Below are positions 2,049-22,105 of a stretch of 23,739 bases of DNA, one piece after another (position 1 is the first letter of the stretch; each line of letters starts with the position of its first letter). Location: NCBI GenBank assembly GCA_048938445.1, contig JBHLME010000067.1, positions 1 through 23,739 of the forward strand, given 5' to 3'. Below the pieces are notes generated by a model. It was not told where the DNA came from, did no database searches, and was given only the letters and a program-made list of their open reading frames with translations. This stretch comes from Promethearchaeota archaeon (GTDB taxonomy: Archaea; Asgardarchaeota; Lokiarchaeia; Sigyniarchaeales; SOKP01). Made by a program: the position numbers and the translations under genes.

Positions 2049-4226
2049 TTAATAAAATTGAAGTTTCAATTCAATTTCAAAACTTTTCGTAAGTTTTATC
2101 ATTGGAATCACATTGACACCTTGATATATTTTTTTATAGCCCTCATCTGTAAAAGCATAAGCAATAATTGGAAATTTACCAATTTTTATTTGATTAGATT
2201 CACTATTAAGATCAATTTCAAAATTTAATTCATAAGTTCTATCTAATACTTTAAAATGTGAACTTGAATATAAAAATGGTTCCAGTAGATCCATATTTAA
2301 ATTTTCATCAAATTCTGACTGCTTGCTTTCCCATTGGAATTCATTTGGATTACCATTAAAGAAAAAGGGTATATCTACTGCCAAATTTAATTTCTCAATT
2401 ATTTTTCTTAATATTTCTTCATTTTCATTATTTTCCTTTAATTTTCCATTAATAGTAATAAATAATTGATTGTTTTCAACAATGATGGTTTTAGAAATAA
2501 CACAAGATACCCCCTCTCCCGATTTAAAATTTTTAATCATACCTTCTTTTTGCATTTCGATTAATGCTTTTTGACCATTAATCTCGCTCTTTATTAAAGA
2601 AAAATTTCCATCAACAAAATCTCCTAACTCTTGATAAATATCTGCTTCAATTTGCTCGATAGTAACATCATCATAAAAAATTCTAACCCGCAACATCGAT
2701 CTCCTAAAACGATCAACCATTATTTCACCTTTTTCTATTTTTTCATTATCATGGTAAGCTTCAGGCCATCTTGTTAATGTATTTAGGATATTATAAGATT
2801 TTGGTTTGAAATCAATTTCAAAAATGGTCCCTCCATTTGATGGATTTATATAAACATTAAGAATATCCGATTCTATCAAAACATCCATTTTGCTATCCTT
2901 ATTAAAATCCAATGGTTCTATTGACATGTATGAACTTTGATGAGAGACGATTAATCCATTCATCTCATCAATTAATTTTTCAGCATTAATCAAATGAGTA
3001 TATACAGAAAATCTTAAAAACTGTAAATAGACTCCACCAAACATTCCATGCCAATAACAATCATTACATTGCCCTTTATAAATTTCATCCCATGCTTCAA
3101 GAACTTTTGGTTTTAATGTTGAAATAAGAGTAAGATCCTTCAATTTCTTAATTTTAGATTCTAAGTCTAGAAGTTTTTGTCTCACATGGAGCATTTTTTT
3201 ATGCATGTTATTAGATTCTGGATATTTTACCAAAAAATATCTCCAAAATCCACCTTTAAGAAATTGATATGCTTCTTTCCAGGTTTTATATTTTTTTGTA
3301 AACTCTATTATATGGCTAAACTTCTTTCTAACATCTGTAGGAAGAACCCATTCTTCCATTTTATCATAACTTGCCGTGGGTAGATATACTAAATTTTTTG
3401 CTGGAAATTGTTCAATGTATTCTGAGGGTGTGATTGATTTTATCCATTTATTATTTTCTACTTGTTTCAGAAAAGCGGGAATGAAAGGCTTTCCATTATC
3501 ACCTTCTTGATGTCCATAGCCCTCTATATAACAAATCTGATGTGTAGTGCCCCAAACACCCATCTTTTCAGCATCAGAAATCATTAGCGCAACCCGATCA
3601 CCATTTTCGTCTGCGGCTTCTTTCAAATAATCTATCGTCATGTATGTTGGTTTCCAAGGAGTAAGATATCGTATTGGTTCATTAATAGGAAAGACCCTTA
3701 ATGTTTTCCCTTCATCTTCAGTAATGTAAGTATATAATGTTTCTTCTTGAGTAATACCACTTGACCGGAAATGATTGTCATCAACAATAACATAAGTTAA
3801 TCCTACATCACTTAGAAAAGAGGGATAATTTGGTTCCCATACCCTTTCCGATAACCAAGCACCTTTTACATCTAATCCAAATTCTTCATGGATTAAATGA
3901 GAAAGTTTTCGTATCTGAGCAATTTTATCTCGATAAGGAATGATTGAAAAAATGGGCTCATAATATCCACCTCCAATAATCTCAATTTGACCTCTGCTTG
4001 CCATTTCTTTAATTTTTTTAATTATTTCCGGTTTCTTTTTAATAAACCATTCTAACAAGTTACCAGAAAAATGGAACGTGATTTTTACATTGGGATGTTC
4101 ATAAATTGTGTTGATTAAAGGGCCATACGATTTATTAAAACAATCCTCAATAACATGCTCAAAATTGTCTACAGGTTGATGAAAATGGAAAATTATGGGT
4201 AGATGGATGCTTTTCTCTGTGATAAT
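2049..4226 (-). CDS. GH57 family 4-alpha-glucanotransferase / alpha-amylase; true start upstream of the track's TTG, probably ATT (4226) or ATC (4223)
   Basis: In-frame extension contains the GH57 region-1 motif FHFHQP and FHFSG. GGGYYEPI, nucleophile WLSERVWEP, acid/base SDAEKMGVWG, SYDKMEEW, QCNDCYWHGMFGGVY. Confidence 0.93.
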   Translation of the reverse strand: MITEKSIHLPIIFHFHQPVDNFEHVIEDCFNKSYGPLINTIYEHPNVKITFHFSGNLLEWFIKKKPEIIKKIKEMASRGQIEIIGGGYYEPIFSIIPYRDKIAQIRKLSHLIHEEFGLDVKGAWLSERVWEPNYPSFLSDVGLTYVIVDDNHFRSSGITQEETLYTYITEDEGKTLRVFPINEPIRYLTPWKPTYMTIDYLKEAADENGDRVALMISDAEKMGVWGTTHQICYIEGYGHQEGDNGKPFIPAFLKQVENNKWIKSITPSEYIEQFPAKNLVYLPTASYDKMEEWVLPTDVRKKFSHIIEFTKKYKTWKEAYQFLKGGFWRYFLVKYPESNNMHKKMLHVRQKLLDLESKIKKLKDLTLISTLKPKVLEAWDEIYKGQCNDCYWHGMFGGVYLQFLRFSVYTHLINAEKLIDEMNGLIVSHQSSYMSIEPLDFNKDSKMDVLIESDILNVYINPSNGGTIFEIDFKPKSYNILNTLTRWPEAYHDNEKIEKGEIMVDRFRRSMLRVRIFYDDVTIEQIEADIYQELGDFVDGNFSLIKSEINGQKALIEMQKEGMIKNFKSGEGVSCVISKTIIVENNQLFITINGKLKENNENEEILRKIIEKLNLAVDIPFFFNGNPNEFQWESKQSEFDENLNMDLLEPFLYSSSHFKVLDRTYELNFEIDLNSESNQIKIGKFPIIAYAFTDEGYKKIYQGVNVIPMIKLTKSFEIELKLQFY

Positions 4227-4382
4227 TTATTACACCATTGTTTAGTAATATTACAAATAAAGACTTAATGGTTTATAATTGTAATGAATAAGCAGTTTTT
4301 ATAATTCAAATATTAAGTGAATCCTACCTAATTGAGTGAAAATATCATCTTATATCCTTTATTTTTGAAGCTTTTTCAAGCA

Positions 4383-5459
4383 TTATTCTTTATTTTCTTT
4401 TATTAAGACTAAATATGGAAAGGCTTTTTGAAGTTTACCATCTAATTTTTTAAAAATGAGGTTATTATTAAAAATTGGTTGATTAAGTCTTTGAATTATA
4501 TCATCTGAAATCATTTTTGAGAAATTTTTAATTGATTTTTGAAGATAATAATTATTCCCCGATGTAATAACGATAATTATTCCATCTCTTCCCTTTAATT
4601 CCGAGAAGTACATTTTATACTCATCAACATCAAATAATTTTAATTTTGCTGAAGATCCAAGTATTTCACTTACTATCACCGAAATAGCTTTGATTGCTCC
4701 ACTTATTACTATTTTTTTTGATTCGTCTAGAGCTGGAATATTTCTCGTGGAAACATGTCGGTGATAAACAAGCAAACCTGAGCGATTAATAATATATATA
4801 TCATGTACAGGAAATGAAAGCCTGAAAATATACTCTTTATGAATAATATAATTTATTACTAATAGTGATTGCCCTATAATCCAAATATAATATCTTAAGA
4901 TAGAAAAAATTAGATCATTTGAAAAATAAAAGAGAAAACTTACCATAACGGTAATAACGGCAATTAATTCCAGCATGGTAGCATTTTCCTTCATTAGTCT
5001 ATGGGTTTTATAACAAGATTTCAATATAAAGAATGAACATATTAGAGTAAATATGATAATAGTTGAAAACCAAGTTATATAAATTTCAGGTAATTTATTA
5101 ATCACCTCTTCAAAGAGCAGAAAAGATACTGCTGTATTTAATTGCAATATGCTAAAAAGAAAAATATTAATTGTTCTTGAAGTTTTTTTTTCAGAGATAG
5201 CTTGGTAATGTAGATAAATGAAATATGTAGCATATATAAATGTAATATATGTAATTTGATTGGAATAAAAACCAATTATATTAATAAAAAATCCTAAAAA
5301 ATTTAAATGACTGCCCATTACCAGTAAAAAATAAGCAATAGTTAAGTGTATTGGTATTACTCCCTTCTTTACAATCCTCCTGTATAAAAAAACTAAAAGT
5401 ATTACAGTTACAATTGTTGATGAAACTGGTTCAGAGAGTATTGAAAAATTAAGATCTAT
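4383..5459 (-). CDS. Seven-transmembrane protein with C-terminal longin-like domain; probable non-AUG start (ATA 5459 / ATT 5462-5465)
   Basis: In-frame extension adds IDLNFSILSEPVSSTIVTVILLVFLYRR...HLTIAYFLLV, completing 7 hydrophobic segments. C-terminus DIYIINRSGLLVY...ISGAIKAISVIVSEILG...GIIIVIT fits a longin-type beta-beta-alpha-beta-beta-beta-alpha pattern. Confidence 0.75.
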   Translation of the reverse strand: MDLNFSILSEPVSSTIVTVILLVFLYRRIVKKGVIPIHLTIAYFLLVMGSHLNFLGFFINIIGFYSNQITYITFIYATYFIYLHYQAISEKKTSRTINIFLFSILQLNTAVSFLLFEEVINKLPEIYITWFSTIIIFTLICSFFILKSCYKTHRLMKENATMLELIAVITVMVSFLFYFSNDLIFSILRYYIWIIGQSLLVINYIIHKEYIFRLSFPVHDIYIINRSGLLVYHRHVSTRNIPALDESKKIVISGAIKAISVIVSEILGSSAKLKLFDVDEYKMYFSELKGRDGIIIVITSGNNYYLQKSIKNFSKMISDDIIQRLNQPIFNNNLIFKKLDGKLQKAFPYLVLIKENKE

Positions 5460-5676
5460 AATAATTCCACCACTATAATATTTGTATCTATTCCATATAT
5501 ATTCCTAATGTTAGTTTCAAAACAATTTCAAATTATAAATCTTTTTACTTATTACTATAGTTCGTATCAGTGAAAAACTATAAGTAAAATTAATAACGTT
5601 TAAAAGTTCAACAATTATATTTAATTATCAAGTTTGAAATAGAAAGAATTTAGTATAAATTTAAAACATAAAAGCA

Positions 5677-7236
5677 ATGGCAAATACAATTGATATCAAA
5701 CATGTAGAAAAAATCTTTAACACTCAAGAGTTTAAAAAGTGGCTAATCTCGAAAAGATGGTTTGGAAATAAGTTAGAATTGGTTGATTTAAAATTTATAA
5801 TTCAGATAGAATATTTTAAATCAATAGAAGAAAGGATTCTTCTTCTAATCATTAAAATCATTAAACAGAGTTATTCAAAGTCTTATTTTTTACCATTAAT
5901 CAATTATATGAATGTACATGACATTCTTGACACAATAGAAGTTGATAAGAATACCTTGCAGAATATTAAAGACCATATTTTTGAGGGTGATTTAAAATTA
6001 ATTGAGGCGGAATACTGCTTTTTTTTTTGGAAAATCATTTTACGTGATATTGAGTTAAATGAAGCATTTAAATTTCCTGAAAATTATATTTTTTCATTAC
6101 ATCAATTAGGAAAAGATAACACGACAAATCTATTATTTTCAATTGAGATAAAAAGTAAAGAATCAATTGACAAACCAGCAATAACTTATGTTTTAAAATC
6201 ATATAAGAGTTATTCTGAAAACTTAGAGATCATGAAATTGTCAATACTTAATGAAAATTACTTTCAAAATGTTCCCAAGATCCTCGATACTATAGAAATA
6301 AATGAGATTACTGTTATTTGCATAATGGAAATCGTGCCAAATATTGGTAATATCGGTGAGATTTATTGGAATGAACTCAATGATATGGTGAATGAGATTT
6401 CTAATGAAGAAAAAAATATTATTTCTCTTACAAATAGAAATAGAAGTATTAATTTAATTCATAAATTTTGTGTAGAATCCATTAAAATTTCTACATTAAT
6501 AGGAGAAGTTATCGGTAATTTATTAAAAGGATTAATAAAATCCGGAAATATTGATTTTTCGATTGAATATATTGATGCTATGGATTATTTTAGTGAACGT
6601 GCTAAAATTATAGGTTCAATTAGCTCAATTCTAATAAAAAATTCAAATCAATTAGGAAATTCTTATAAAATTTTACATTGGAATAAATCTGAATTAAATA
6701 ATAATATAGTAGGAGTCAAAAAGATTGTTAATAAATTAAAAAATGAATATAAAGAAAAAAAAATAAGAATACAACCCATACACCAAGATTTGCACATGGA
6801 ACAAATTTTATATAATAAAAATAATGGAGAATATATGTTCTATATACTTGATCTTGAGGGAGACCCTCAATTATCTATCAAAGAAAAAAAAAAGAAATTT
6901 CCCATTGAAAAAGATATTGCTTCATTTTTAAGAGCTTTAAGTTATATCAAATTGAACATGCTATTAAGTATAGTAGATAAAAGAAAAAATTTGAATTTAT
7001 CCCAAATATCTAATCAATCCGATGAATTAATACAGGGAATTCAAACCATTCTAAATATATGGGAGATTTATTTCACAGAATTAATTCTAAAAAATATAGA
7101 GGTGGACACTACATTAATGCATTTATTCACAATAGAGCGAATCCTAAATGAAATGAAATATGAACTTTTATATAGACCCAAAAAAATAATTATTCCATTA
7201 TTAGGTTTAAAAGAAATAATTACTCAAGAATATTAA
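5677..7236 (+). CDS. Maltokinase (Mak/Pep2)-like phosphotransferase, APH/kinase fold
   Basis: N-cap WLISKRWFGNK; catalytic IHQDLHMEQIL, ILDLEGDP, KDIASFLRALSY, YELLYRP..IPL. These match maltokinase motifs HGDLHLGQVL/DFEGEP/DVAGMLRS/YEL.NRP. Confidence 0.8.
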   Translation: MANTIDIKHVEKIFNTQEFKKWLISKRWFGNKLELVDLKFIIQIEYFKSIEERILLLIIKIIKQSYSKSYFLPLINYMNVHDILDTIEVDKNTLQNIKDHIFEGDLKLIEAEYCFFFWKIILRDIELNEAFKFPENYIFSLHQLGKDNTTNLLFSIEIKSKESIDKPAITYVLKSYKSYSENLEIMKLSILNENYFQNVPKILDTIEINEITVICIMEIVPNIGNIGEIYWNELNDMVNEISNEEKNIISLTNRNRSINLIHKFCVESIKISTLIGEVIGNLLKGLIKSGNIDFSIEYIDAMDYFSERAKIIGSISSILIKNSNQLGNSYKILHWNKSELNNNIVGVKKIVNKLKNEYKEKKIRIQPIHQDLHMEQILYNKNNGEYMFYILDLEGDPQLSIKEKKKKFPIEKDIASFLRALSYIKLNMLLSIVDKRKNLNLSQISNQSDELIQGIQTILNIWEIYFTELILKNIEVDTTLMHLFTIERILNEMKYELLYRPKKIIIPLLGLKEIITQEY

Positions 7237-12582: not shown

Positions 12583-13779
12583 TTAAATAAGATCTAATTT
12601 TCCACCACAATTCTTACATTGATTATTTGTTAATTTTGAAAAGCATTCTTTATGATAGAGAGTACCGCAATCTAAATTACCACATTCGACTACATCTTGT
12701 CCAGGATCAAAAATGTAATTGCATATAATACAAGACTTATAAAGTGCTTCCTCTCCTAAAATGGATATATTAACAATGGTTGCTTCATATGTGCCTGGTT
12801 CTTTAGGTGAATCTCTTCTTTGAGATAACACGCTTAAAGAATGCAATTTTCTCATTTGTGCAACCTCTGATGGAATTCTTAATAAATAAAAGCAATGAGG
12901 ACATCTGCATGTTTCAGATTTTTTTGCATCAAATTCACTTTGAGAAGCAGCCCATCCTGCCAAACAATGGATATGGAATGGTGTTTGACAATTTGGGCAG
13001 TATCGTCCTGTTAGGAAAAAAGAACCCTTGCTATTTGGATCTGTTTCTGAGAAACATATAGAGCATTTCTTATAATCTGCTTCTCCTCTTAGTTGTTTTA
13101 TCCTTTGTTCTTGATCTTCAGTCAAATCTTGTACACTTAATGGATCTGCTGCAATTTTTCTAAGAAAACTTGGATTTTGAATTTGGAGTTTTGAATCTTG
13201 ATTATAAGATTTGATATTTTCTGCTGCGAAACTGCTTGCTGCATCCAGTAAAGAATCGGGTGAATTAGTATAATGACTTCTTCCTCCCGAAGTTTCACTA
13301 ATATTTTTTAAAACATTAATCGATCCAGAATCTCCTAAACGAAAGGTATCAATTTTTATATTCAATCCTTTCGCCAATTTGGCCATTTTTATAGGATCTG
13401 TATTAGATTGCGTGTAATTTCCATCAGAGACTAATAATATTTTTGGAATTTTCGCACCTATTTTTCTCAATTCTCCTATTGCAACCTTTATTGATGTAGC
13501 TATAGCATCTCCAATTGGAGATCTCCCACTTATCGTGAGGGAATCTAATGTAGAATGAAGATCATGCACTATATTTGTAAAATCTAATATCTTAGTGGGT
13601 TTATCTAAAAAAGTAACAATTGCAAATGAACTGCTCGGATCGCTTTCAAGTCTCAATTCAACCAATTTTTTTAAAGCATTTATGCAAGATTTTAATCGAT
13701 CAGGTTTAAAGTCTGTTCTATGCATGGACCTTGAGGTATCAATGCAAATCACTACATTTTCTGGTATTTTTTGTGCCAC
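12583..13779 (-). CDS. vWA domain (Ssl1/Rpn10-type) + two RING-like zinc fingers; putative ubiquitin E3 ligase
   Basis: MIDAS DTSRS, TDFKPDRL, LVSDG. Finger 1 CSIC..CPNC..HIHCLAGW..CPHC; finger 2 CIIC..CGNLDC..HKEC..CKNC. GTG start. Confidence 0.82.
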   Translation of the reverse strand: MAQKIPENVVICIDTSRSMHRTDFKPDRLKSCINALKKLVELRLESDPSSSFAIVTFLDKPTKILDFTNIVHDLHSTLDSLTISGRSPIGDAIATSIKVAIGELRKIGAKIPKILLVSDGNYTQSNTDPIKMAKLAKGLNIKIDTFRLGDSGSINVLKNISETSGGRSHYTNSPDSLLDAASSFAAENIKSYNQDSKLQIQNPSFLRKIAADPLSVQDLTEDQEQRIKQLRGEADYKKCSICFSETDPNSKGSFFLTGRYCPNCQTPFHIHCLAGWAASQSEFDAKKSETCRCPHCFYLLRIPSEVAQMRKLHSLSVLSQRRDSPKEPGTYEATIVNISILGEEALYKSCIICNYIFDPGQDVVECGNLDCGTLYHKECFSKLTNNQCKNCGGKLDLI

Positions 13780-13999: not shown

Positions 14000-15208
14000 A
14001 TGTCCGATGATGAGAGTTTAGCAAAAATTAAAGATTTTTTTAAAAGTTCTGTAGTCATACCAGAGGAATTATCAGCAATTATGAACTTAAAACCTGAATC
14101 CTTAATTGGTGTAGATTCAATCAATTCAGAAAAACTAGTAGAGAAAAATTTAAGAACCATTGGAGATTTAGCAAGTTTAAATCCCGAAGATCCACCAGAG
14201 ATTGCTGGCTTGTCCTTACAAGTTTTTATTAAATGGATAAAAATTGCTAAAGTTTTAGAGAAAGTAATAAAGGAACAGATCAAGGAACAAAAAAAGCTCT
14301 TATTAATTGGATTGGATAATGGTGGTAAAACTTCAATTTTAGCAGTAATACAAGATAAGTTTTCAATAATTAAATCACTTCTACCAACTAAAGGAGTACA
14401 GAGAGAAAAGTTAGATTTTTTTGGATTCCCAATAATATCATGGGATCTAGGCGGTCAAGTACAATATAGAGATAAATATTATTTTGTAAAACCTGAAGTT
14501 TTCTTTACTGAGGTTGATTTAATCTTATATGTTGTTGATACGCAAGATCCTGCTCGATTTAATGAAGCAGCAGATTATTTCAGGCAAACCTTAGGTGTAT
14601 TAAAAGATCTCGAAGAACATCCACCACTTTTAGCAGTTCTGAATAAAAGTGACCCCGATATACGAAAAACCTTACAATGGCAGAAAAATAAAACAGAAAT
14701 AGTAAATAAATTAGATCTCGTGGCAAAAGAATTCGGTGGAATTTCAGTTGATTATTGTGATACTACTATCTTCCAAAAAGAATCAATAATGCAAATGTTC
14801 AGCATCGCATTAAAGAAGATATCAGAAACATCTGAAATAGTAGAAAACATACTCGAGGATTTTACTAAAACAATTGAAGCAAAAGCAGCCAGCTTGATAT
14901 CCATGGACGGATTAATTTTTGGAAGTTATACTAAAACGAGTATTGATGAAATGCTTGTAAATAATACGGCTCTATTAATGCAAGCGCTTTCAAATTTTCA
15001 TAGCTCAATTGGACTCATCCGAGAAAAGACTCTCTCTCTTGATTTCCCATTAAATGGCTTTACTATTCGAGGAGAAAAACTTTTTGAATATTCAGAGCTA
15101 CAAATTCCCGTATTCTTGTGGATACTCTCTGAAAATCCAGAGCTAGTTTACGAGAAAGTTGATTATTTTAAGGAACAATTATTACCTCTAATAAACATGT
15201 TCCTATAA
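14000..15208 (+). CDS. Small GTPase (Arf/Rag-like) with N-terminal HhH-like domain and C-terminal roadblock/LC7-like domain
   Basis: G1 GLDNGGKTS, G2 PT, G3 WDLGGQ, G4 NKSD. N-terminal LIGV..EKL..RTIGDLA..IAGLS resembles the HHH_5/RadA N-domain. C-terminal AASLISMDGLIFGS is roadblock-like. Confidence 0.88.
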   Translation: MSDDESLAKIKDFFKSSVVIPEELSAIMNLKPESLIGVDSINSEKLVEKNLRTIGDLASLNPEDPPEIAGLSLQVFIKWIKIAKVLEKVIKEQIKEQKKLLLIGLDNGGKTSILAVIQDKFSIIKSLLPTKGVQREKLDFFGFPIISWDLGGQVQYRDKYYFVKPEVFFTEVDLILYVVDTQDPARFNEAADYFRQTLGVLKDLEEHPPLLAVLNKSDPDIRKTLQWQKNKTEIVNKLDLVAKEFGGISVDYCDTTIFQKESIMQMFSIALKKISETSEIVENILEDFTKTIEAKAASLISMDGLIFGSYTKTSIDEMLVNNTALLMQALSNFHSSIGLIREKTLSLDFPLNGFTIRGEKLFEYSELQIPVFLWILSENPELVYEKVDYFKEQLLPLINMFL

Positions 15209-18162: not shown

Positions 18163-18897
18163 CTATTTGTAATATAAAAATCCTTGGTAGAATAAGAAAT
18201 AACAGATAACTAATAAAATTCTTGTTGGAAATAATATTATATTCGTGAATAAAAATTCTGCGGGAATAGTTATTTCAATAATACTACCAATAGAAAAGAT
18301 TAAAAAAGCCCATGTTAATAATAAACATCTTGTGCGTTCTTGACCTTCTAATTTTCTTGAAAGTTTATAAAAACCTCCACTGAAGACGTAGATATTTAAA
18401 ATGAGAAAAAATGTTAATATAGTTCCAAATGCTATTCCTGCTTGAGGTTTAATTAAAAAGCTATTTGGATCTTCACCTCCCCCAAATACGATATTTAGAT
18501 CCCCAAAATTTAAAGGAATCCAATAAAGTAAAAAAAGAAATAAAGGAACTAATATGATTATTAGGATAAGAGCTAATTTTTCAATTCTTATAAGAAAGGT
18601 TTTTGTTGCTAAACGAGATAACACAGCGGTTAAACCAATAGAAGGAGTAAATGTAATCCATCCAGAAATGAGAGGGCTAATTAGATTTTCATGGAATACT
18701 AGAACTGTAATGAACGAGAGAGTTATGTCTAAATATACCGTTCCCATAAAAAATCCAATATAAGAAACATAAGATAAAGCAGTTCGTTTTTCCTTCAAAT
18801 ATCGGAATAATGCTATGAATCCAATAATATATCCAACAATACAAGCGATAGTTGCGCTCATACCATTTAAATAAGTCCAAAGATTAGGATCTACCAT
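18163..18897 (-). CDS. Stand-alone seven-transmembrane receptor-like protein (paralog 1)
   Basis: Seven hydrophobic segments with basic loops after TM1 (KEKR) and TM5 (KLSRKLEGQERTR); GGTGA SD 5 nt before ATG. Confidence 0.82.
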   Translation of the reverse strand: MVDPNLWTYLNGMSATIACIVGYIIGFIALFRYLKEKRTALSYVSYIGFFMGTVYLDITLSFITVLVFHENLISPLISGWITFTPSIGLTAVLSRLATKTFLIRIEKLALILIIILVPLFLFLLYWIPLNFGDLNIVFGGGEDPNSFLIKPQAGIAFGTILTFFLILNIYVFSGGFYKLSRKLEGQERTRCLLLTWAFLIFSIGSIIEITIPAEFLFTNIILFPTRILLVICYFLFYQGFLYYK

Positions 18898-19011: not shown

Positions 19012-19755
19012 TTATTTTTTATAATATAAAAATCCTTGATAGAGTAAAATATAACTGAATGCTAATGCGATTCTTGTGGGCAGTAATATAATAGTCGTTA
19101 ATTCACGAAATTCTGAGGGAAGCGACATATCAATAAAATTACCAATTGAAAAAATTAAAAAGCCCCATGACAATAACAAGCATCGTTTACGTTGTTCACC
19201 TTCTAAATTTCTTGAAAGTTTATAAAAACCTCCACTGAAAAAATATACATTTAGAACAAGGAAAAATGAAATAATTGATAAAAGTAATGGTTCTGCTTGA
19301 TGTTTTACTAAATGGCTAATTTCATCTTCAAAACCGCCTAAAATAAGGTTAGGAGCATCCCCAAAGTATATTGGAACGGCATATAGAACTATTAGAAATA
19401 TTGGAACTAGAATAATTATTAATGCAATTGCAAGTTTTTCAATTTGAACTAGAAATGTTTTTGTTGCCAAACGAGATAATACGCCTATTAAAAAAATTGC
19501 AGGAGTAAAGGCAATCCATCCCGAGATGAGGGGAGTAATATAATTTTCACGTAAGACAAGAACCATAAAGAATGAAAGGGTTACATCTAAATAGAAAGTG
19601 CCCATTAAGAATCCAATATAAATTACATAAGTGAGAGCATTTCGTTTTTGTTTTAAATACCTAAATAATGCCACCAAACCTACAATGTATCCCATAATAC
19701 ACGTGATACTAGCACTAATTCCATTTAAATACGTCCATATATTAGGATCGACCAT
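19012..19755 (-). CDS. Stand-alone seven-transmembrane receptor-like protein (paralog 2)
   Basis: 47/62 identical N-terminal residues to paralog 1; same topology; GGTGA SD. Confidence 0.82.
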   Translation of the reverse strand: MVDPNIWTYLNGISASITCIMGYIVGLVALFRYLKQKRNALTYVIYIGFLMGTFYLDVTLSFFMVLVLRENYITPLISGWIAFTPAIFLIGVLSRLATKTFLVQIEKLAIALIIILVPIFLIVLYAVPIYFGDAPNLILGGFEDEISHLVKHQAEPLLLSIISFFLVLNVYFFSGGFYKLSRNLEGEQRKRCLLLSWGFLIFSIGNFIDMSLPSEFRELTTIILLPTRIALAFSYILLYQGFLYYKK

Positions 19756-20336: not shown

Positions 20337-20933
20337 CTAATCAATTGGAATTAAAGAACGATATTTTTCTTGATCTTCCATGTCCTCAGGATCAATATCA
20401 GCGTCATCAAATTCACCATCTAATAGAGTATATTTAAACACACATGCATCATCATCTAATAAACAGCAGCTGATTTCTTCAGCATCCACGGCTACTTCCA
20501 TGTTTTCAAATAATCCATTGAATACACCTTGATAAAGTCGACAGATATTTTTTGCCATTATATTTTCTTTTTCAGATTCTGAGAGAGGTTCATGCACGTG
20601 TATTTCTACATTGTCTTTAGCAAATTTTGATCTCAATACTCCAAAACCTAAGTGTTCTAAAGTATCTAAGATACCCCTAATAGCTTTTTTCTTTATAGAG
20701 AGAGATTCATTTTCCCAATTAACATCAGGTATTAATTGAGTAGATAAATGTTTTCCAACCGTCTTTCCAGTCCAAAGGAGGATATCCTCAGCAGAAGAAC
20801 CAGCAAATTCGGCAAATTCAATTAAATCAATTGGTCTAAGCATCAGTAGCCTTAAATCTTTATTTCCAAGAAATAATTGCCCTAATTTTTCATCAACATT
20901 TATCGCAATATCTTTTTTTGTTCTTTTAAACAT
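20337..20933 (-). CDS. V4R-domain protein (V4R/Bet3-TRAPP fold)
   Basis: LLWTGKTVG, LEHLGFG, ICRLYQGVFNGLF, EEISCCLLDDDACVF (V4R Cys pattern); acidic tail. Confidence 0.82.
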   Translation of the reverse strand: MFKRTKKDIAINVDEKLGQLFLGNKDLRLLMLRPIDLIEFAEFAGSSAEDILLWTGKTVGKHLSTQLIPDVNWENESLSIKKKAIRGILDTLEHLGFGVLRSKFAKDNVEIHVHEPLSESEKENIMAKNICRLYQGVFNGLFENMEVAVDAEEISCCLLDDDACVFKYTLLDGEFDDADIDPEDMEDQEKYRSLIPID

Positions 20934-21076: not shown

Positions 21077-22105
21077 CTATGAAGAAATTAAAAAAGTTAT
21101 GAATTGATTTATTCTATTCACGTTATAATTTGTTTTTACTGATGTGAATAAGAATTCCCACTTTCTATTTTCAATTTCTTTAAGACCAAAGTATTCAAAT
21201 ATTTCTTTTCTCAATCGCACTAGATGATCAACACTGTCTTTAGTATTACCCATATTTAAATGATTTATTAAATCAATTTTATTTCCAATAACTAACAAGG
21301 GAACTTCAATTAACTCATAATGATTAATAATAAAATCCAATTCTTTTTTTGACTCAGCAAATCGTATTTGATCGGAGACATCAATCATGTAAATAAGGAT
21401 ATTTGAGTCTTGGGAACCTGTCAACCATTTTCTTCGAAATAAATATTGACCGGGCATATCCCAGAATGCTAATAATCCCATTTCTTCATCTTCAATATAC
21501 TCAATACTAAACTTTTTTGTCGGAGTAAAAAAATTATCAGAATAATCGCCAGTCTTAATTCTTCTTACTAAAGAACTTTTACCTACTTCATCAAGACCGA
21601 ATAAAAAAATCTTAGTAAATGTTGAATCTCTCAATGTTTCGGAACTTGAACTTTTTTGCATTATTTCTTCATTATATCCCCTTATATCAATGAATAACGT
21701 GATCAAAAAATTTTCTATTTCAATTTCCTCCTCAAATGAACATCGTTTTTCATTAAGGATTAATTCATAAATCAATTCTTTGAAAAAATGCTCATAATCA
21801 TGGGAATTATCACTATTATCAAAAATTAGCCCAATTATGATGTTTCCATTAATACAAATTGTACTTATATTTAAATTTTTAATGATTTGAGGGATTGGAT
21901 CATCTAAATAAAAGAGTTGTTCATCAATTATGCTCTCTTTTTTCTCTTTATGTTTTTTTTTTAATTCTTTAAAATCATGCACGTGAAATAATTTTTCAAT
22001 AATTGATTTATCTTTTATAATAATATCTCGGGGATAATTGAATATACTTAGAGCATCAATGTCTTGTAGGTTATCTCCCTTAACTAAAAAGATATTTTGT
22101 ATCAA
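21077..22105 (-). CDS. N-terminal longin-like domain fused to Arf/Rag-like small GTPase
   Basis: G1 GLDEVGKSS, G2 FTPT, G3 WDMPGQ, G4 NKID, G5 SVK. The N-terminal ~145 aa alpha/beta domain (NIFLV...IIIGLIFD) is tentatively longin-like. TTG start. Confidence 0.85.
   Translation of the reverse strand: MIQNIFLVKGDNLQDIDALSIFNYPRDIIIKDKSIIEKLFHVHDFKELKKKHKEKKESIIDEQLFYLDDPIPQIIKNLNISTICINGNIIIGLIFDNSDNSHDYEHFFKELIYELILNEKRCSFEEEIEIENFLITLFIDIRGYNEEIMQKSSSSETLRDSTFTKIFLFGLDEVGKSSLVRRIKTGDYSDNFFTPTKKFSIEYIEDEEMGLLAFWDMPGQYLFRRKWLTGSQDSNILIYMIDVSDQIRFAESKKELDFIINHYELIEVPLLVIGNKIDLINHLNMGNTKDSVDHLVRLRKEIFEYFGLKEIENRKWEFLFTSVKTNYNVNRINQFITFLISS

Follow-up and report, generated by a model that had tools for sequence, protein, structure and literature searches.

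The stretch of DNA analysed here (the window; positions 1 to 23,739 of contig JBHLME010000067.1, assembly GCA_048938445.1, from a promethearchaeote of the order Sigyniarchaeales) is 23,739 nucleotides long, and its minus strand carries, at 4383-5465, a gene whose product belongs to an Asgard-wide family, rich in paralogues, of integral membrane proteins that are about 370 amino acids (aa) long. With high probability this protein consists of a seven-helix membrane domain (7TM, for seven transmembrane segments) followed by a cytoplasmic longin domain; the C-terminal domain itself is a longin of the Sybindin type. Taken as a whole, the picture that we propose, that of a 7TM-longin family member whose longin tail would be a platform for small GTPases and whose gene would be an inserted copy with a non-AUG start, has in our view about an even chance of being right. 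The features of the gene are as follows.

4383..5465, minus: 7TM-longin gene, 360 codons plus a stop at 4383-4385 (open frame, full-length family alignment, AlphaFold2 model)
4401..4808, minus: longin domain of the Sybindin/TRAPPC1-C4 type, residues 220-355 (Pfam PF04099, fold searches, PDB profile search)
4809..4841, minus: conserved linker between helix 7 and the first strand, with the family pattern Y.Y.LP.P (column conservation, 81 sequences)
4842..5465, minus: seven-helix membrane domain, residues 1-208, N-terminus predicted to be outside (AlphaFold2, charge count, structural matches)
5202..5216, minus: cytoplasmic end of helix 3, family motif Y-L-H-Y-E, here Y-L-H-Y-Q (column conservation 67-77%, 81 sequences)
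5316..5318, minus: first canonical start (ATG), the gene-caller start; residue 50, in the middle of predicted helix 2
5457..5465, minus: start region with three isoleucine codons, ATT ATT ATA, at the site of the relatives' ATG (same letters in contigs of another study)
5467..5471, minus: Shine-Dalgarno-like GGTGG, directly upstream of the isoleucine codons

The longin domain and the membrane bundle

Pfam recognises the C-terminal domain directly: Sybindin (PF04099), the family of TRAPPC1 and TRAPPC4 and the only one above its cut-off on this protein, scores 28.1 bits on residues 220-323 against a gathering cut-off of 25, and 30.1 bits on the same gene in a six-frame scan of the genome. The full-length AlphaFold2 (AF2) prediction was made with an alignment (A1, 81 sequences) of the 360-aa product and 80 of the 127 representatives of its family, namely those with lengths of 330-440 aa (the 47 excluded ones are mostly fragments); the conservation values given below refer to these same 81 sequences. 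On both AF2 models DSSP assigns the strands (E) and helices (H) E220-227, E232-239, H248-269, E277-280, E283-289, E295-301, H306-318/321-327 and H335-348, that is, the order beta-beta-alpha-beta-beta-beta-alpha-alpha-alpha without an N-terminal helix, which is that of a longin. Residues 210-360 folded alone reach a predicted local distance difference test (pLDDT) score of 86.7, and with this lone domain Foldseek finds 17 matches at E<=1e-3, headed by TRAPPC1 (5.2e-5 and 5.8e-5) and Trs23 (8.3e-5). With the whole model there is no Foldseek match at E<=1e-3; the top rows, all weaker than this, are TRAPPC1, Trs23, adaptor sigma, Fuzzy, Mon1-Ccz1 and MglB. In a further structural search (VIA) with the C-terminal domain, which does not depend on Foldseek, a longin or a roadblock domain stands in all 50 rows listed. 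The longins align through their C-terminal helices (Z 9-10.6 over 114-127 residues, model residues about 8-145), whereas the roadblocks align merely to model residues about 6-120 (Z 7.4-8.9). When the family profile was compared with all PDB sequences, yeast Trs23 came first (E 0.0047, a match to the first helix and the two strands before it), and Gly230 of the longin core is invariant (100%) in the family. The original prediction for this gene, made from the DNA letters alone, had proposed a C-terminal longin-pattern domain of about 140 aa; the Pfam, Foldseek and VIA results all bear this out, as does the topology of the modelled domain.

TRAPPC1/Bet5 and TRAPPC4/Trs23, which are the best matches by Foldseek at E 5e-5 to 1e-4, have the same longin fold and topology, and an N-terminal strand motif, I..I.N..G.L.Y.R, is common to our protein and the TRAPP longins. 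However, the TRAPP subunits are soluble proteins of about 140-220 aa that form heterodimers in a multi-subunit Rab guanine nucleotide exchange factor (GEF), whereas here the longin is the tail of a seven-helix protein and shares 13-20% identity with them; a GEF activity or TRAPP-like partners would be putative here. Ragulator/LAMTOR and MglB have a related alpha/beta sandwich (Z 7.6-8.9) and the same proposed logic, in which a membrane-fixed platform positions or regulates a small GTPase (Rag and MglA, respectively). These are, however, roadblock domains, with the N-terminal helix and without the C-terminal ones, and what fastens them to the membrane is a lipidated partner or a basic patch rather than an integral seven-helix domain.

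With respect to the membrane part, the full-length AF2 model (pLDDT 91.3, predicted template modelling score 0.88) has exactly seven long helices, at residues 2-33, 39-60, 62-91, 97-118, 126-158, 161-181 and 185-208. Because lysine and arginine concentrate in the predicted inner loops (11, versus 1 in the outer loops), the N-terminus is predicted to lie outside and the C-terminal domain in the cytoplasm. The outer loops of the model are just 0-7 residues long. Bundles of the G-protein-coupled receptor (GPCR) type match residues 1-212 in the VIA search (Z 12.2-14.6, root-mean-square deviation of about 4 Å over 198-214 residues, 5-12% identity); a de novo designed GPCR-like fold occupies the top row, and P2Y4 and adhesion and taste receptors are also included. 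Alkaline ceramidase 3 is another structural match (Z 13.5; Foldseek E 1.5e-2). We take the modelled bundle to be a GPCR-like arrangement, and do not take the likeness as homology. Neither a GPCR nor any other membrane family of Pfam matches our protein at E<=10, no GPCR family of Pfam was found among the 81 family members at E<=0.01, and the best score that the membrane part reached in the ESM Atlas was 0.86, under the lead level of 0.9.

Conservation within the membrane part is restricted to the inner ends of helices 3 (Y84, L85, H86 and E88) and 7 (G198, N205 and Y206) and to the linker, a pattern that points to a conserved contact between the bundle and the longin domain. His86, at 68%, is the sole conserved histidine of the membrane domain. 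At two conserved sites the copy studied here departs from its family: residue 88 (5202-5204) is Gln where 77% of the family has Glu, and residue 217 of the linker (4815-4817) is Ser where 96% has Pro. Since the nearest relative, P0002, a fragment that is 62% identical, has Thr at the Pro217 site, the substitution there appears to be a subfamily trait that is older than this copy.

The comparison with GPCRs can be carried somewhat further, as both have seven helices in a GPCR-like bundle and the same N-out/C-in orientation (predicted for our protein), and our family is rich in paralogues. In GPCRs the coupling motifs are found where helices 3 and 7 reach the cytoplasm, and it is at these ends that the conserved residues of our family lie. 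However, no sequence relationship between the two is seen (no GPCR family of Pfam at E<=10), the Z values may be generic for helical bundles, and in our protein the output is built in as a longin domain instead of being a separate heterotrimeric G protein. Another candidate relative was suggested by the UniRef name of one family member, Lokiarch_36350 ('Histidine kinase N-terminal 7TM region domain-containing protein'). HisKA_7TM (PF16927) does match one family member weakly (E 4.5e-4), and the family profile has a weak match (E 0.074), spanning the entire domain, to one genuine HisKA_7TM kinase. On balance, a homology with HisKA_7TM is doubtful: PF16927 has no match at E<=10 in our protein or in its source genome, and a profile-profile comparison (hhalign) of the family with 17 sequences from Asgard HisKA_7TM loci gave a probability of 13% over 44 columns.

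The family and the start of the gene

A HMMER search of 1.84 billion representative proteins found 127 at E<=1e-3 (92 at <=1e-10 and 18 at <=1e-30), most of which are 355-385 aa long and aligned end to end from about query residue 15-20; a word-based protein search returned just the protein itself and one fragment. The taxon names of the family rest on two named cluster members, from Lokiarchaeum GC14_75 and one Hodarchaeales metagenome-assembled genome. In a single-protein search of 41 related genomes, 25 had matches at E<=0.01, the best full-length relatives being open frames of 371-394 aa (26-33% identity, aligned from query residue 6-17); none of the 41 has a close orthologue, the best being 33% identical. 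The family profile, at E<=1e-8, is matched in 109 of the 151 genomes of the phylum, in 63 of the 72 high-quality genomes and in 45 of the 53 genera, and the richest genome has at least 13 scored matches (13 candidates were scored per genome).

At E<=0.01 the profile matches 16 places in the source genome, of which ten are full length and six cover the longin part only; in a local search of the same genome one contig proved to carry a second copy in tandem, and another contig a weaker one, and overall there are at least 11 full-length copies. Two tandem or near-tandem pairs of 7TM-longin genes lie on contigs C159 (locus L043; 5052-6359 and 7294-8574, split by an open reading frame (ORF) with a weak helix-turn-helix match) and C93 (locus L040; 6414-7562 and 7572-8693). 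Longin-only matches occur inside long frames of 1489, 1283, 1157 and 764 aa (C113:22573-22884, C97:33897-34208, C122:6984-7367 and C209:42888-43190), and the sybindin-like longin module thus appears to be combined with other architectures in this genome. A pattern search of the genome contigs, based on an alignment of closer relatives (A3), yielded 26 pattern matches, none of which was confirmed.

The 7TM-longin architecture is already catalogued. The description in supplementary tables 2 and 3 of PMC9834061, a multi-pass membrane region followed by a sybindin-like domain, fits it, and these entries give the orthogroup as common with Prometheoarchaeum syntrophicum and flag it as a putative eukaryotic signature protein. 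Matched by description only, our family would be cog.005893, cog.012914 or cog.013555 of asCOG. A literature search, which took in parts of PMC10933270, PMC4917890, PMC12962969, PMC12290439 and the 2020 asCOG preprint, found no published text on the seven-helix fold, the paralogue numbers or the function of the family, though bioRxiv supplements may hold more. The parts consulted of a 2026 preprint (10.64898/2026.10.28.762692) describe GPCR-like and '7TM' Asgard clusters, which are not tied there to longins.

Seven helices are obtained only if translation begins well upstream of the gene-caller start, because ATG 5318, the first ATG, GTG or TTG of the frame, would give a product of 311 aa that begins in the middle of helix 2. 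This dependence on a non-AUG extension had been foreseen in the original prediction and is confirmed by the AF2 helices and by the relatives, which align through the extension. The minus-strand frame is free of stops from 5504 down to the stop codon at 4383-4385, and the 62 codons between 5504 and 5319 contain neither a canonical start nor a stop, an open length that has a probability of about 0.004 with a stop probability of 0.085 per codon at this base composition. Reading from ATT 5465 gives the 360-aa protein. The relatives align with it from query residue about 5-20 in protein searches and alignments alike, and in an alignment of nine frames their Met, just ahead of the first hydrophobic helix, corresponds to Ile-Ile-Ile. 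The GGTGG motif upstream of these codons has a frequency of 3.8e-4 per position in the source genome; two other genes for membrane proteins in the window also have GGTG at the same spacing ahead of their ATG, as has the neighbouring GH57 gene ahead of the ATT that heads its frame. The start region is identical, with zero mismatches, in contigs of two sequencing runs from a different study (X3 and X4; 5406-5556 and 5368-5700), while a third run, possibly the source of the window, was not counted as independent. Because the second-study contigs carry the same letters, the absence of the ATG is no assembly slip. We read the extension as genuine coding sequence, with a non-canonical start that is probably ATT 5462 or 5465, or ATA 5459.

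The genes on either side, which serve here as context only, are these.

2049..4226, minus: GH57 alpha-amylase/4-alpha-glucanotransferase-type gene, downstream of the 7TM-longin gene (Pfam; middle and C-terminal domains)
5677..7236, plus: maltokinase-like gene, divergent from the 7TM-longin gene (NCBIfam TIGR02457, synteny)

No canonical start heads the GH57 gene either: its open frame, from 4226 on, begins with ATT, with GGTG ten bases upstream. The conserved H-F-H-Q-P stretch of GH57 precedes the first TTG, at 4058 (head at 4059-4236, minus), and when the gene is read from 4226 the Pfam GH57 score rises from 127.8 to 152.2 bits and the profile coverage extends from 80-291 to 40-291. Two adjacent genes therefore appear to start at ATT or ATA, and since the GH57 neighbour shows the same GGTG-then-ATT pattern, this suggests that the organism may use such non-AUG starts. 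Gene callers have shortened both genes, as both seem to begin at non-AUG codons.

The alpha-glucan neighbourhood

The original prediction described the gene as flanked by GH57 on the same strand and by a divergent maltokinase. Both flanking genes are indeed there, GH57 being identified by Pfam and the maltokinase-like gene by TIGR02457, the 'putative maltokinase' model of the TreS C-terminus (83.7 bits, E 1.1e-23, a match to the C-terminal half only and below the equivalog cut-off). The order U32 peptidase, PCMT, GH57 (minus), maltokinase-like gene (plus) and orf7632 recurs within the taxonomic family. We fetched 16 loci of relatives around maltokinase orthologues, 14 of which show both genes and two the maltokinase-like gene only. 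In all 14 of the former, GH57 and the maltokinase-like gene are a divergent pair, and none of the 16 loci has a member of the 7TM-longin family (E<=1e-4). The slot between the pair is without an ORF of at least 90 aa in nine of the 14 loci; seven of these have gaps of 41-185 bp, among them two genomes of the same genus with 41 and 83 bp. At the remaining five loci it is occupied, by an MFS_1 transporter at L129, an MFS_2 sugar-type transporter at L133, a Ras-family GTPase at L135, a 183-aa membrane protein at L136 and a YhhN protein at L137, and the slot looks like an insertion hot spot. Seen from the side of the 7TM-longin family, no homologue of the GH57 or the maltokinase-like protein of the window lies within three genes of a family member at any of the 57 other loci.

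Because the pair is conserved without it and the other loci of its family are without sugar genes, our gene looks like a lineage-specific and recent insertion into a variable, divergent intergenic slot. No functional tie of either neighbour to the gene was found; the alpha-glucan context seems to be an accident of insertion and should not guide experiments on it. The neighbourhood with GH57 and maltokinase, which had been put forward as a sign of a membrane sensor, possibly of maltodextrin, is not conserved, and the sugar-sensing role accordingly loses its footing.

A putative GTPase platform and its alternatives

The close structural matches of the C-terminal domain are all either GTPase-binding longin and roadblock domains or adaptor/SNARE longins (TRAPP, Mon1-Ccz1, Fuzzy, MglB and LAMTOR), and passages of PMC10933270 and PMC4917890 describe Asgard longin and roadblock domains as often fused to GTPases. 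We propose that the longin domain would be a membrane-fixed docking or regulatory platform (an anchor, a GEF or a GTPase-activating protein) for a soluble small GTPase, candidate partners being the Rab-, Arf- and Rag-like GTPases that are numerous in Asgard genomes. By analogy with these systems, we put such a function for the longin tail slightly below an even chance. The state of the bundle would be passed to the longin domain by way of the linker and of the inner ends of helices 3 and 7; because conservation clusters at just these places, the protein might be a signal-gated sensor and more than a mere anchor. The variable outer half of the bundle and the many paralogues fit a family of sensors, and equally a plain anchor under weak constraint. 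The copy in the window would have been inserted between the conserved GH57/maltokinase-like pair and would start at an ATT or ATA behind GGTGG. A GTPase-platform domain on a membrane module had been part of the original prediction and continues to be the best reading of this gene, whereas the sugar signal and the specific GTPases of the window that were attached to it are unsupported.

Several observations weigh against this picture. The longins of SNAREs and of adaptor sigma/mu subunits, which are unrelated to GTPases, score as high as the GTPase platforms. Sybindin is found at E<=0.01 in just four of the 81 family members and Fuz_longin_1 is reached by three of the 81, and it is because so few members reach either model that the family is mostly unannotated. 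The GPCR-likeness of the bundle, at Z 12.2-14.6, lies within a range that may be generic for helical bundles (values below about 13 are flagged as such). As to the start, we counted throughout the genome the codons that stand 9-11 bases past GGTG among the first 20 codons of long open frames. There the enrichment is 3.3-5.1-fold for ATG, GTG and TTG, but only 1.46-fold for ATT (32 seen, about 22 expected), 1.39-fold for ATC and 1.28-fold for ATA, one of the starts proposed here; these counts are a weak hint of non-canonical starts and are not decisive, and translation of our gene from ATT or ATA is putative. The same copy, with no canonical start and with the P217S and E88Q substitutions, could be diverging or decaying.

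The genes around the family members also fail to single out a GTPase. Our survey of 58 family loci (636 ORFs, 70 family members and 339 neighbours within three genes) revealed no conserved partner gene by neighbourhood clustering. Small GTPases are the sole recurrent class of neighbour, with 11 ORFs at nine of the 58 loci, three of these loci being syntenic. Chance alone would put one at about 11% of loci, a rough and inferred expectation that takes six neighbours per locus and about 2% of Asgard genes to be small GTPases, a share given by the usual Asgard gene number together with a published GTPase count. The nine loci are therefore about at chance level and no clear enrichment, and at nine paralogue loci of the source genome none of 43 neighbouring ORFs is a GTPase; at nine loci of relatives one of 44 is. 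The count used is that of 74 small GTPases reported for one Asgard genome in a passage of PMC10933270. Two GTPase genes lie in the window itself.

14000-15208: Gtr1/RagA-like GTPase, more than 8 kb from the 7TM-longin gene
21077-22105: Arf-like GTPase, more than 8 kb from the 7TM-longin gene

Coupling of our protein to these two GTPases had been suggested by the original prediction. It gains nothing from their distance, from the near-chance proximity of GTPases across the family, or from the protein encoded at 21077, which has no similarity to the family profile.

Four other explanations of the protein can be weighed against a membrane-fixed GTPase platform. The most serious of them, if still an unlikely one, is that it is a GTPase-independent, membrane-anchored longin scaffold, with V4R/Bet3-like partners of the TRAPP type, adaptor-like cargo or a SNARE-like role, and with the helices as an anchor or oligomerisation module. 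The N-domains of adaptor mu/sigma, sedlin and the longins of VAMP7 and Sec22 equal the GTPase platforms (Z 9.2-10.2), the family neighbourhoods are without GTPase enrichment and there is a weak V4R match within the window at 20337-20933; V4R/TRAPPC3-like proteins are also encoded in Asgard genomes, according to a passage of PMC10933270. Yet the best matches, both at the sequence level and by Foldseek, are two TRAPP subunits that contact Rab1/Ypt1, and seven helices whose cytoplasmic ends are conserved are more than a plain anchor would call for. It is hardly credible, by comparison, that the bundle is an enzyme or a transporter, for example a 7TM hydrolase like those of the PAQR/alkaline-ceramidase type, which the longin would regulate. 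The match to alkaline ceramidase 3 (Z 13.5, Foldseek E 1.5e-2) and the conserved His and Glu at the inner end of helix 3 speak for such a reading, but the membrane domain has one conserved histidine only (68%), our protein itself has Gln for the Glu, and no Pfam match to such families appears at E<=10. PAQR and alkaline ceramidase hydrolases have a zinc site of several histidines (plus Asp/Ser) inside the bundle, and this multi-His site is without a counterpart here.

Two explanations remain. In the first, the gene would not be translated from a non-AUG codon, as we prefer, and this copy would be a decaying or N-terminally truncated paralogue that has lost its start codon, any translation of which would be from ATG 5318, without helix 1 and half of helix 2. 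The first 62 codons without ATG, GTG or TTG, the substitutions at conserved sites (P217S, where 96% have Pro, and E88Q) and the recent insertion, with no close orthologue in 41 related genomes (best 33% identical), would all fit such decay. We nevertheless judge it improbable: the upstream frame is open (P about 0.004) and family-like, GGTGG stands ahead of the isoleucine codons, the GH57 neighbour has the same GGTG-then-ATT pattern and conserved GH57 sequence before its first canonical start, the Pro217 substitution is common to the 62%-identical P0002 and thus predates this copy, and the sequence is identical in the second-study contigs. Still less probable is a sensor of maltodextrin or another alpha-glucan that couples a sugar signal to the window GTPases at 14000 and 21077. 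The gene does sit between GH57 and maltokinase-like genes, and the sugar-type transporters sometimes found in the slot of relatives (MFS_1 at L129, MFS_2 at L133) indicate that functionally linked membrane proteins can sit there. However, a family member occupies the slot at none of the 14 pair loci, nine of which are without an ORF of at least 90 aa (two same-genus genomes among them), the slot also hosts unrelated genes (the Ras GTPase, the YhhN protein and the small membrane protein), and GH57 or maltokinase is near none of the 57 other family loci. Moreover, outer loops of 0-7 residues leave the model no extracellular domain for sugar binding, and the window GTPases are more than 8 kb off, with no similarity to the family in the one at 21077, the only one compared.

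If the longin tail is indeed a GTPase platform, a more ambitious, and rather unlikely, extension would be a prokaryotic 7TM-receptor system wired to small GTPases, in which the paralogues, with their variable helix bundles, would each sense a different membrane or extracellular cue and switch a Rab-, Arf- or Rag-like GTPase through a TRAPP-type longin; an expansion to more than ten copies in a genome would on this view amount to a sensory repertoire. Asgard archaea have dozens of small GTPases and longin/roadblock proteins, and the 7TM-longin family provides a concrete place to seek their sites of action. Being present in most Asgard genomes, often in at least ten copies, it offers defined baits for GTPases that work at the archaeal membrane, and it would allow a test of whether receptor-to-GTPase signalling predates eukaryotes.

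The window contains two further membrane proteins, which stand alone and are tandem paralogues.

18163-18897, minus: stand-alone membrane protein
19012-19755, minus: stand-alone membrane protein, 66% identical to the preceding one

Each has 6-7 hydrophobic segments and GGTGA ten bases ahead of its ATG, and neither has a Pfam or NCBIfam match. A link between them and our protein had also been proposed, but we find no similarity by BLASTP or by profile, and hhalign gives a probability of 0.3%. Finally, the product of the minus-strand gene at 12583-13779 has a VWA domain with a RING finger joined to it at the C-terminal end, and the gene at 20337-20933, also on the minus strand, combines the weak V4R match (23 bits, below the cut-off) with an MsvR-like match; these two Asgard genes have a eukaryotic flavour.

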